12,361 nt of DNA from the NCBI GenBank assembly GCA_045105515.1, contig JBGCDR010000137.1, positions 1-12,361 on the forward strand, written 5' to 3'. Of this stretch, positions 4,331 through 7,830 are shown piece by piece. The number at the start of each line of letters is the position of its first letter. Position 1 is the first letter of the stretch. Origin of the DNA: Oligoflexales bacterium. Lineage in GTDB: Bacteria > Bdellovibrionota_B > Oligoflexia > Oligoflexales > Bog-1112. Position numbers and translations under genes: made by a program. Under the pieces are notes generated by a model. That model did no database searches and had not been told where the DNA came from. It worked only from the letters and a program-made list of their open reading frames with translations.

Positions 4331-5680
4331 ATGGAAAGAATTAGCAAGAAAAATAGATTTCGCTGCTTCATCGAAAATGATCGCGTAGCAGCTCATGGAA
4401 TAATGACTGATACTACGAATTTTTTTATGCTCGACGATCTTTTAGAAGAAACCTTAGAAATAAGCCTAAAGGATGTTGACAAAGCAAGTTGGATAGGTTT
4501 GGTGAATTTCTGTAAGTACCTCAACAACAAAAAAAAGAAATTTATACTTTTTGAGGTTCCTTATCGGATATTTAGGCATATGCGTTTGCTGACTAAATAT
4601 ATCCAAGAGCTGGATGTTAAAAGTATATATATTGATCTTTATCTGTTAGAGAACCTTGAACAAAAAGACTGTGATCGCTTAATTTCAAATATAGGTATAC
4701 AGGCGCTGAAGCAACAAGGGCCATGCTTAACTGGTGATTCGCGCAAGATGTTCATCCCAGAGCCTATTGAGTATCTGAATTTGGATTCTTGTAAAAAAGG
4801 GGTTAAGGTAAATTTTCATCCCGCGTTGAAGTGGACCAAGGAAGAGTTTGATGAACTAATTTTTTGGTACAAGTTACAAAAATTTACCGCCGAAACTATC
4901 GATCTAGTGCAAGATATGCATCGGACTCAAAATTTTCAGATCTTTAATTCTTTAGAAAAGATTAGACAGGTGATCATGAGTTTTGAGATGGTTTTTGATA
5001 CCCAAGAAAGTATCAAGACTAAAGAGTTCAAGGATTTTGAAAATTGGTTTTCTCGAGAGATGCTACAAATCTCAAATGTACTAAATAAAATTTACATAAA
5101 AAGTGATTTTGCAAGCAGGGTTATCTTTTTTCATTTGTTCTTCGACAAAGTGAAGATATCAAAATCTATACATCTAAAAATACTTGATTCTTCTTCTGAG
5201 ATTGTCGAATTTGTGCGAATAAGTTCCGCAGTTGAAGGTCTTGGGTCTAAAGGAACGAAACACTTTATAAAGATGGATTTATGCAAATATTTCCATGAAC
5301 TTTTGGATCAAGCTGCGAGTAATGGGATGCTTGAAAAAAAATATGAAGAAATAACAGATAAATTTAATATTCTTGACCTTACAGCGCAAGAAGAAAACTT
5401 CGACTTAAAAGTCTTCTTGAAGAAAGCTGTAGATAGCATAGATGATATTATGGTCGAAGAAATTGTGACGTATTTTCAGGGTTTTGACTTGCTAAATCAA
5501 GTTATTCACCATCGTTTTAACGAAGCAGAGTATGTAATTGATTGTATTGATAGAATTCAAGAAGGAAAAATGAAAACCGAAGATTTTCAGTCTAGTATAC
5601 TAAAAAGAATGCAAGAATCCTTAGTAACAGATCAAGAGAATAGTACCTTTAATTTTTTCTTTCCCACTGAATCAAGTTAG
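4331..5680 (+). CDS. Hypothetical cytoplasmic protein: STAS-like N-terminus, helical C-terminus with CheZ-like DxxxQ motif
   Basis: 449-aa ORF with no signal peptide. Residues ~15-105 follow the STAS-like pattern (ISLKDVDKASWIGLVNF...FILFEVP). Residues 377-392 read EIVTYFQGFDLLNQVI. The ORF is secure; the domain calls are tentative. Confidence 0.75.
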   Translation: MERISKKNRFRCFIENDRVAAHGIMTDTTNFFMLDDLLEETLEISLKDVDKASWIGLVNFCKYLNNKKKKFILFEVPYRIFRHMRLLTKYIQELDVKSIYIDLYLLENLEQKDCDRLISNIGIQALKQQGPCLTGDSRKMFIPEPIEYLNLDSCKKGVKVNFHPALKWTKEEFDELIFWYKLQKFTAETIDLVQDMHRTQNFQIFNSLEKIRQVIMSFEMVFDTQESIKTKEFKDFENWFSREMLQISNVLNKIYIKSDFASRVIFFHLFFDKVKISKSIHLKILDSSSEIVEFVRISSAVEGLGSKGTKHFIKMDLCKYFHELLDQAASNGMLEKKYEEITDKFNILDLTAQEENFDLKVFLKKAVDSIDDIMVEEIVTYFQGFDLLNQVIHHRFNEAEYVIDCIDRIQEGKMKTEDFQSSILKRMQESLVTDQENSTFNFFFPTESS

Positions 5681-7830
5681 TCTATTTTATAAATTTGGTT
5701 AAGTTTAAGCTCTAAAAAGACGTGATCTTGATTGTACTTTATTGAATTGAGTTCAGGACTTAAACTCAATTGGCTACCAATATATAGATCTGGAAGCGGG
5801 AAATGTAAATTAGTTAAAAAGTTCTTAATTTGAGTGTATGCAATATGTCTGACTACAGTTAATTTGGTTGCATGGGGAAGAAAAGTCCATAAGCTTATCA
5901 TTGATAGTATCTTATCTATAAATTTATCACTTTTTTTGGGTAGAAATGCCATATCGCTGCTGAGTTTATGAAACCGAAAATAAATTTCGCCATCAGTTTT
6001 TATATCAGGGACAAAGTGAAAGTCGATGCTCATACGGGTTGTATACCTTACTTTGTTTGATACTAATAGTGAAGCTGAAACTTCTTTGATTGAAATTAAA
6101 AATTTGCTGTTAACTGGATCCCATTTAATAATTGGAGCAGATTCGAATTTTATAATTAGATCGCGAGCATTTTCGATCAAAATATCTTTGTCTTTAAGGT
6201 CCAGCTGTATATTTTCAAACTGCTTACTTTCATGTAAATATGCCATATAACGATTAATAAATCTAATTGGAAGTATAAATCTAGCATGAAAATTATCTAG
6301 CGTATCATGCGATGACCTTAAATTTAAGTCTTCAAAGAATGAGGATAGCATCATTATGGAAGATAACATTGAGGTTGCATGACTTGATTTTTGAAAATAT
6401 ATGCAATGATCGCGAATTGCGTTTAGAAGGGATAAAACATATTCGCCAAAGTCCGAAGAAGAGTTTTGTTTTAGAGACTTGGCTATCTTGCGCCATTCAA
6501 CGTGGTAACTATGAAGTCCTTTAACTGCTTTCTCGCTTTTTGCACTAGGTATCATTTTTTTTGAATTCAATTTAATGTTCTTTAGGATATTGAGTAAACC
6601 ACCTATCACAAAATGCTCGTCTGCGGAGTATAATTTCCCATGCCTGACTATATCGCGAAAACCAGGTGGTTCAATGTCATTGCCCAAAAGAAATAAAGAC
6701 ATTGCATATGGGTGATTTGGCCTGTCAATTTCTTTCTCTTCATGCATTAGTTCTAGTTTTAAGAATGTGTTCCTTTTCGATTTTTCAAGGTTTTGATTGA
6801 CTTTAGATTGAATTGCAATGATTTCATCTCGAATTATGGATGGTATTTCGTTGCGATTTTCTTCTAAAAATTCAATAATTTCATTTAGAAAACAAATGAC
6901 ATAGTAGGAGTAAATCTGATTGTTTTCTAGGTGTTGAGCATATTTTTTTACATAACTATGAACATCTTGAATTTTCTTGGGTTCTAGCTCATCTTTTATC
7001 TCTATTAACATTGACCTTATTTTGTTTTGAACACGCTCATTGCTGGAAAAATCGATTTGTCCGCTAAGATCAATATTTGGTAAGTTTAGTGAGATAAATT
7101 TTTCTATAAAATATCGCAAAGATTTATTGCTGTTTAACTTAGTGCTGAGAGCTTCAGCAATTGCCGTGATTGCAAATTCATTGATTGATTTTTCTAGGAA
7201 TGTTCTTAGTAAATCTGAGTTCAGCAATGAGTCATCGAAATGATAGTCATTATTATCATTTCTAATGCTGAAAAAGAATGCATCTTCGTCAGTAAGGTTT
7301 ACGTAAGAATTTTCAGGATCTATTTCCAGCAAAGATTTATTGTTCTTTGTCGCATTCAGAGACATGCTTAAGTGAATCCATGAAAAGAGTTCATGATCAC
7401 TTTTTAGGCCAAAATTAACATTGAAATTTATGGGGATATTAAGATATTTTACGGTTAATAGGGCATTAACGCTTAACTTTTTTACTGGCAAGGAAATAAT
7501 ACAATTTCTTCTTAGGCATTTGACTTTAGTCTTGCTCAGTTCAATTTGATGTGCTCGAAGAGCTGAAAGATTGATTTCAGAGTCGGGAAAAATGCTCTTT
7601 TGGCTACTTCGAGAATAGAGAGGTATATCCTGCAAAGATAAGTTTCTTAGAACGCTGTTAATTTCATTTAAATTGCTGTTAAGATATTTTTCCACAAACA
7701 CAGCAAGACCGCTAGGGGATACTTGGATATTCCCAGCGAAGCCTAAGTGAAGGTTTTTTTTAGCATTTGCCAAAATGCTCGATGTGTAGAACGAGTATAA
7801 AAGTATCAATATAGCAAATTTATGAGTCAC
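5677..7830 (-). CDS. Exported protein, putative BPI/LBP/CETP (TULIP) superfamily lipid-binding protein with two inserted helical domains
   Basis: 717 aa with signal peptide ([23 protein letters not shown]). GTG start overlaps the upstream TGA (GTGA) with AAGGA upstream. Four colinear segments resemble BPI (see findings). Confidence 0.75.
   Translation of the reverse strand: [717 protein letters not shown]
6316..7050 (-). repeat. Diverged internal duplication of a ~90-105 aa helical domain (aa ~261-350 and ~401-505 of the 717-aa protein)
   Basis: FSSNE...HSY...A.HLENN...YVICFLNEI versus YSADE...HSY...A.SLKQN...YVLSLLNAI. The + strand 10-mer TAACTATGAA occurs at both HSY sites. Confidence 0.6.

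Follow-up and report, generated by a model that had tools for sequence, protein, structure and literature searches.

The contig JBGCDR010000137.1 of an Oligoflexales bacterium was analyzed over its whole length of 12,361 bases (the window). It belongs to a metagenome-assembled genome (MAG) of 6.29 Mb in 461 contigs, with a completeness of 90.9% and a contamination of 4.8%. Three DNA sequencing runs, all from one study, contain the stretch and each is possibly its source; no RNA run was listed. An open reading frame (ORF) on the minus strand encodes a protein of 717 amino acids (aa) that, judging from predicted structures, probably folds into two consecutive tubular lipid-binding (TULIP) domains separated by a large helical insert (Table 1). 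The ORF is a genuine gene, since full-length orthologues exist at 58-74% identity, plus one at 24%. An exported protein of the BPI/LBP/CETP (TULIP) lipid-transfer family had been proposed for this frame in an original prediction made from the sequence alone. An ORF with a GTG start was confirmed at its coordinates, and the strand, which it lacked, is now assigned.

Export-type N-terminus and predicted fold of the 717-aa protein

The N-terminus of the protein reads as a Sec-type export signal, as judged by inspection of the sequence together with hydropathy and not by a predictor. Hydropathy rose up to 2.2 over residues 5-15, and residue A21 was invariant in five of five close relatives in the alignment. 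By direct reading, residues 1-23 contain no cysteine, and thus no lipoprotein box is present. The earlier description of the protein as exported is supported by these features. Furthermore, a cysteine pair (C105/C110) located in a hairpin of the N-terminal domain fits an exported protein. The pair did not vary within the close family and was retained in a paralogue family, but not in the remote homolog P0007 (both described below).

Two AlphaFold2 models of the protein were obtained. Model 1 was built from five close sequences, with a mean predicted local distance difference test score (pLDDT) of 42.4 and a predicted template modeling score (pTM) of 0.26. Model 2 was built from a 9-row alignment to which P0007 and the paralogue family had been added, with a mean pLDDT of 57.3 and a pTM of 0.28. 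The order of elements was identical in both models, namely helix/sheet/helix, twice. Both contained the helices and strands listed for the two domains in Table 1, a helical region over residues 261-504 with two short strands, and a helix ending at residue 534 at the start of the C half. In a Foldseek search of the PDB, all four matches of model 1 at E <= 0.001 were double-TULIP proteins, namely LBP (4m4d, 5.4e-5), BPI (1ewf, 1.5e-4; 1bp1, 2.0e-4) and CETP (2obd, 2.2e-4). The following ranks were occupied by Der p 7, JHBP, Takeout, SPLUNC1, Mdm12/Mmm1 and E-Syt2. Under the same threshold, the matches of model 2 were BPI (best 7.9e-6, probability 1.00), LBP and Der p 7/Der f 7, accounting for six of six. 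The check proposed with the original prediction, AlphaFold followed by Foldseek, thus returned BPI, LBP and CETP as top PDB matches of the two models. The structural alignments to BPI were colinear, with model residues 30..678 pairing with 1..426 of 1ewf and residues 40..666 with 8..423 of 1bp1.

The ESM Atlas model of the protein, made by an independent predictor (ESMFold), had a pTM of 0.45. Its whole-protein neighbors included BPIFB4 and a nematode cluster carrying PF02886, with template modeling (TM) scores of 0.40-0.45 by query and 0.46-0.59 by target, and the 372-417 aligned residues spanned positions 1-717. Other neighbors included BPIFB3, nematode clusters bearing PF02886, and bacterial clusters of Myxococcota and Bdellovibrionota. 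Residues 505-717 alone reached TM scores of 0.57-0.70 by query over 173-185 aligned residues, and the top feature match of this region (0.91) was a cluster with PF02886 in 29% of its members. For the whole protein as well as for residues 505-717, 10 of the 10 best family-bearing feature matches shared one family or clan. Horizontal transfer from eukaryotes was considered and set aside, as it was suggested only by ciliate and nematode clusters of the ESM Atlas, which are no sign of transfer, and there was no sequence similarity with which to test it.

Weak support for packing of the two halves came from folding them as separate chains, which gave an interaction prediction score from aligned errors (ipSAE) of 0.33 (median of three runs) versus 0.00 for the best of three controls. 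The runs agreed in at least 40% of contacts, and the partner pLDDT was at least 62. Of 157 solved complexes, 116 attained the mark applied in this assay, as did 2 of 215 mismatched pairs. With scores <=0.60, only 18 of those complexes attained it, along with both mismatches, and these counts hold only roughly here because a custom alignment was used. The pass may reflect mere likeness to solved BPI-type structures.

The two helical bundles of the insert were the best-predicted regions of the protein (pLDDT 65-87 in the 9-row model). They coincide with the stretches (residues 261-350 and 401-505) whose removal before profile searching had been advised in the original prediction. The most conserved block across the family, residues 374-417, also lies within the insert. 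Part of the insert region is missing from the paralogue family in the joint alignment, and searches with residues 251-504 yielded only generic matches.

Table 1 Features of the 717-aa protein and of the genes upstream of it
Feature	Coordinates	Strand	Description
Main gene, 717-aa putatively exported protein	5677..7830	minus	GTG start; stop codon 5677-5679; from ORF list and translation
Signal-peptide-like N-terminus, residues 1-23	7762..7830	minus	Basic start, hydrophobic core 5-20, Ala-Asn-Ala at 21-23
N-terminal TULIP-like domain (predicted), residues 24-250	7081..7761	minus	Helices 39-62, long strands 69-198, long helix 205-246; Cys105/Cys110 conserved
Insert between barrels (predicted), residues 251-504	6319..7080	minus	Helical bundles ~256-355 and 400-504, flanking two short strands and block 374-417
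C-terminal TULIP-like domain (predicted), residues 505-717	5680..6318	minus	Helix 512/522-534, strands 556-629, long helix 637-673, two terminal strands 688-715
Upstream gene, 174 aa	7827..8351	minus	Signal-like N-terminus, moderately hydrophobic segment ~75-103, three 11-residue amphipathic repeats
TerD-domain gene, 263 aa	8368..9159	minus	Hydrophobic N-terminus; Pfam TerD E 3.2e-22, residues 56-236; 16 nucleotides from the 174-aa gene
M14 zinc carboxypeptidase	9280-10734	minus	E 8.7e-70; hydrophobic N-terminus; ~100-aa C-terminal extension beyond the Pfam domain; just upstream of the TerD gene

Sequence tests and distribution of the family

Several observations, from the models and from the sequence, weigh against a double-TULIP fold. 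By the confidence values given above, both AlphaFold2 models are poor. Their Foldseek matches superposed badly (TM 0.12-0.22, root-mean-square deviation 31-37 Å), because the barrels in the models are not packed as in BPI, and low-confidence models can yield meaningless Foldseek matches. In the ESM Atlas, BPI-family clusters scored 0.89 for the whole protein, below the mark of 0.9. The numbers of shared features, 149-167 for the whole protein and 156 for the best match of residues 505-717, were likewise below the mark of 170. Moreover, training on one and the same set of solved TULIP structures may have biased all the predictors alike. In the Pfam search, the 717-aa protein matched no LBP_BPI_CETP model at E <= 0.1, its top match being DUF445 (E 0.023, far below the cut-off of that family), and six relatives matched none at E <= 1; NCBIfam gave nothing meaningful for the protein. 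Phmmer with the whole protein against all PDB chains returned no match at E <= 10, and the N part (residues 24-262) and the C part (residues 505-717) returned one unrelated match each (E 1.5 and 1.8, respectively). A six-sequence profile gave six matches in the PDB (E 0.22-3.2), with no TULIP protein among them. Six-frame scans of the bacterium's own genome at E <= 10 found four weak PF01273 matches, none above the cut-off and none on this contig, and one weak PF02886 match on another contig, leaving the main gene untouched. Comparison of the N half with the C half by hhalign gave a probability of 1.9%, with no internal repeat detectable by sequence. Both Pfam models were also silent over 131 genomes of the phylum (0/131 each), but so were the controls, and absence is thus not demonstrated by that scan.

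Since both PF01273 and PF02886 were tested and neither recognized it, the 717-aa protein falls, by sequence, outside the Pfam BPI/LBP/CETP families. The original prediction had rested on four segments resembling human BPI (residues 32-42/60-69, 518-538, 559-568 and 671-680/700-710). These segments are present, and their colinearity with BPI agrees with the structural alignments to 1ewf and 1bp1 over both halves. However, their similarity was not above chance by any sequence statistic run, the human BPI sequence itself not being aligned. Nor did any profile search return a BPI-like match, which is half of what had been named in advance as speaking against the prediction. The BPI/LBP/CETP assignment thus stands as a predicted fold, based on the top PDB matches of the models, and falls as a family defined by sequence.

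Alternatively, the TULIP likeness may be an artefact of weak models, the true fold being a different, perhaps new, alpha/beta arrangement and the predictors defaulting to a helix plus a long sheet. We regard this as improbable. AlphaFold2 on two alignments and the independent ESMFold converged on the same superfamily, TULIP proteins filled all the significant Foldseek ranks of both models, the C-terminal domain alone reached the TM scores reported above, and the alignments were colinear over both halves. For these reasons, a double-TULIP fold of residues 24-250 and 505-717 is accepted as quite likely. It is composed in the models of two consecutive domains, each with a helix, a long curved sheet and a long helix, and solved double-TULIP proteins are its best structural matches. 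On this modeling evidence, the protein is most likely part of the structural superfamily that includes BPI, LBP and CETP.

To the extent that sequence comparison reaches, the family is conserved yet extremely narrow, consisting of six proteins and a distant paralogue, and its matches within the phylum are confined to one genus. A word-indexed search of 5.8 billion proteins returned the 717-aa protein itself and four orthologues (58-74% identity), one of which, from an Oligoflexales MAG, carries the NCBI name 'hypothetical protein'. When 1.84 billion representatives were searched exhaustively with phmmer, two proteins were returned at E <= 0.001, the orthologue cluster and P0007, a protein of 735 aa with 24% identity to the 717-aa protein (E 1e-63). 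P0007 as the query of the exhaustive search matched only itself. When the six-sequence profile was run against the 131 genomes, matches were found in three at E <= 0.01 and were full-length in two, namely the own genome and that of a sister species in the same genus. The third match (genome G121, E 0.003) was discarded, as six stop codons lay inside its 45-aa frame. A scan of GTDB species genomes found one locus only, on the contig of the sister species, and a scan of JGI metagenomes for the family gave no match.

The distant paralogue, P0008 (674 aa), was found in the same genome by the profile (E 4e-6). Its N-terminus is signal-like, its helical insert is shorter, and its N domain contains extra loops; within the phylum it is restricted to this genus. 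Profile-profile comparison of the main and P0008 families gave a probability of 84.5% over 94 columns, and the conserved positions were colinear in both halves of the joint alignment. The P0008 gene (G000:C181:78225-80249, minus strand) is flanked by genes resembling a short-chain reductase and a regulator.

Possible function and relation to known TULIP proteins

In the proposed mechanism, the 717-aa protein would be exported by the Sec route as a soluble protein without a lipid anchor. It would carry two TULIP domains in the BPI/LBP/CETP order, each formed by a helix, a long curved beta-sheet and a long helix, with ~250 residues of helical bundles between them. By analogy with BPI-like proteins and with TipA, a double-TULIP protein of Bdellovibrio bacteriovorus, one or more lipids would be held in a hydrophobic lumen, and the protein would take up, transport or extract lipids, either in the periplasm or beyond the cell. 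We judge the full statement, fold plus lipid-binding role, to be likely, with lipid binding in a putative hydrophobic lumen as the most likely activity suggested by these analogies. That the protein binds lipid, which lipid it binds, where it acts and what the neighboring genes contribute are matters of inference only, and the label 'lipid binder' follows from the modeled fold.

In the BPI/LBP subgroup, a positively charged N-terminal domain binds lipopolysaccharide (LPS). The net charges of residues 24-250 in the six family members were +2, 0, -9, -5, -8 and -15. With no conserved positive charge in this domain, an electrostatic grip on LPS in the manner of BPI and LBP is unsupported, and the suggestion of an LPS binder in the original prediction finds no backing in these six proteins.

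A double-TULIP protein could also serve the bacterium's own envelope, moving phospholipid or another lipid between the inner and outer membranes instead of acting on a host or prey, as proposed for the periplasmic bacterial TULIP proteins DUF4403 and YceB. The Sec-type signal, with no recognizable signal for secretion past the outer membrane, is consistent with this role, and bacterial TULIP families are placed in the envelope in a published survey (Levine 2019, PMC6791001). In addition, one ESM Atlas neighbor was a DUF4403 cluster of Bdellovibrionota (TM 0.39 by query, 0.46 by target), and YceB was the best VIA-align match of the C-terminal domain. Nevertheless, a housekeeping role would be expected to be widespread, and the very narrow distribution argues against it, with full-length matches in only 2 of the 131 phylum genomes, both in one genus, and just two proteins from the exhaustive search of 1.8 billion representatives. 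The 717-aa protein matched neither DUF4403 nor YceB/DUF1439 in Pfam, nor DUF2140 or DUF2993, at E <= 0.1, and it differs from these TULIP families in length and in its helical insert. Service to the own envelope is therefore rather unlikely in our estimation, although it is the alternative that we take most seriously.

The closest solved structures are those of the eukaryotic BPI/LBP/CETP/PLTP group (1bp1, 1ewf, 4m4d and 2obd), which were the best PDB matches of both models and share with the 717-aa protein the two-domain order and export. Unlike that group, the protein has no detectable sequence or profile similarity to it, is longer (717 aa versus 448-472 aa for the PDB chains), carries ~250 helical residues between the barrels, lacks a conserved positive charge in the N domain, and is bacterial and confined to one genus. 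In BPI, the barrels are joined by only a short linker.

The remark in the original prediction that such proteins are mostly characterized in eukaryotes is fair, but it overlooks TipA. In a recent preprint, TipA is described as a secreted BPI-like double-TULIP protein of B. bacteriovorus with lipids in its lumen and a partner encoded in its operon, TipA and TipB being bd2538 and bd2539 and TipB a C2-like beta-sandwich; double-TULIP proteins with added helical-bundle or beta-rich domains are reported there as well (bioRxiv 10.1101/2025.09.09.675085). Publications on bacterial TULIP proteins date back to 2019 at the latest (Levine, PMC6791001). TipA/TipB is the nearest system described so far. 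TipA and the 717-aa protein are both bacterial, secreted (by signal in our case), divergent BPI-like double-TULIP candidates from the wider predatory lineage, each encoded in an operon with small exported partners. In contrast to the proteins of the preprint, compared by description only, the insert of the 717-aa protein lies between the barrels and is not fused at an end. No TipA chain was among the structure matches listed, and the PDB copy searched by sequence may not contain TipA.

Bacterial BPI-like double-TULIP proteins being already known, what is new here is the orphan sequence family, the large insert between the barrels and the distinctive operon partners. No paper joining double-TULIP or BPI-like proteins with Oligoflexales was among the 15 of 381 matches listed by a full-text literature search. 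If the predicted fold is true, the protein represents a further independent bacterial branch of BPI-like lipid carriers, one that no sequence method detects, in the predatory and host-associated lineage where TipA, the first bacterial example, was characterized. It would add to the view that double-TULIP proteins are ancient and widely used among bacteria and not a eukaryotic invention. The large insert and the two exported operon partners would offer a second system for asking whether bacterial TULIP proteins generally use adaptors. Alone, the protein overturns nothing, as its class is already in print.

Probable operon partners and neighboring genes

The 174-aa gene, at its stop codon, and the main gene, at its GTG start, share four nucleotides (GTGA), which suggests coupled translation of the two genes. 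In the 174-aa protein, self-identity was highest at lag 11 among lags 3-15 (11/50), and Pfam gave a sub-threshold hint of Apolipoprotein (E 0.0071, 16.5 bits versus a cut-off of 90). Its orthologue in the sister species (G014; L014 62-487) lies directly upstream of the orthologous main gene and contains more repeat copies. A weak match to the 174-aa protein (24% identity) was also seen in a 307-aa frame in a genome of another family (G056).

The TerD gene is possibly the first gene of the operon. TerD proteins usually occur in a cytoplasmic tellurite-resistance context, and an exported TerD protein is unexpected. Its domain is of a type that we take to be a beta-sandwich, and TerD proteins presumably bind calcium; the acidic loop GDSVTGEGEGDDE at residues 129-141 of the 263-aa protein resembles what we understand to be the calcium site described for TerD. 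In the sister species, the TerD orthologue (71% identity) ends 87 bases before the end of a 2128-base contig, a position that fits the same gene order. A promoter-like site was found upstream of the TerD gene at 9226-9197. Promoter-like sites were no commoner than in shuffled sequences (24 versus 21.2 +/- 4.5), and a single terminator-like site was present where 3.6 were expected. Judging from this gene arrangement, the 717-aa, TerD-type and 174-aa proteins are probably made together from one operon. The P0008 locus has no TerD or 174-aa-type neighbors, and thus the partnership, if real, would be specific to the main locus. Elsewhere in the genome, three further and weaker TerD-like matches were present (G000:C210, C257 and C180, E 6e-20 to 5e-4).

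The presumed beta-sandwich of the TerD-type protein and the amphipathic repeats of the 174-aa protein invite the idea of an adaptor and an acceptor in lipid handling. In the preprint, TipB is also a beta-sandwich, and here a TerD-type domain is encoded two genes upstream of the 717-aa gene; the partners differ in kind, being a TerD-type and an 11-residue-repeat protein versus the C2-like TipB (bioRxiv 10.1101/2025.09.09.675085). Taken further, the three exported proteins of the operon could form a lipid-extraction module without a described counterpart. The TerD-type protein would dock on the double-TULIP protein or open it, much as TipB does with TipA or C2 domains do with eukaryotic SMP proteins, with the insert as docking site. 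The 174-aa protein would receive or solubilize the lipid in the manner of an apolipoprotein, so that a host- or prey-associated Oligoflexales bacterium strips lipids from a foreign membrane. We offer this analogy as a highly speculative one, with a small chance of being right.

The same surroundings bear on a different possibility, that the TULIP fold is a component of a complex resembling clostridial P47/OrfX, either toxin-like or for adhesion, and serves membrane attack or complex assembly and not lipid transport. The main gene lies among genes for putatively exported proteins, namely the 174-aa protein, the TerD-type protein, the M14 peptidase and a kinase whose N-terminus is signal-like. 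According to two sources, the genes for P47 and OrfX2, both TULIP proteins of bacteria, are neighbors of toxin genes (PMC6791001; bioRxiv 10.1101/2025.09.09.675085), and TipA is reported to destabilize membranes (bioRxiv 10.1101/2025.09.09.675085). Against this, neither the 717-aa protein nor its neighbors matched a toxin family in Pfam or NCBIfam. P47 and OrfX structures were not among the matches listed by Foldseek and VIA-align, which does not exclude them. We consider such a complex very improbable and favor a lipid-binding double-TULIP protein.

Further genes were noted in the window. A 190-aa protein (10900-11472, plus strand) contains one PqiA domain (Pfam, E 1.1e-18), a family that we take to be part of an envelope lipid-transport system, and no MCE/PqiB-type gene was visible beside it in the window. 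A gene for a 449-aa protein (4331-5680, plus strand) is convergent with the main gene, their 3' ends overlapping by four nucleotides. Its product is conserved in the sister species and matched no family, the top Pfam match being nSTAND3 (E 0.012). Finally, a 453-aa protein (1160-2521, plus strand) combines a hydrophobic, signal-like N-terminus with a Ser/Thr protein kinase domain of the eukaryotic type (Pkinase, E 1.1e-24). Its gene adjoins the same genes in the sister species too, and an exported kinase, if it is one, would be uncommon.

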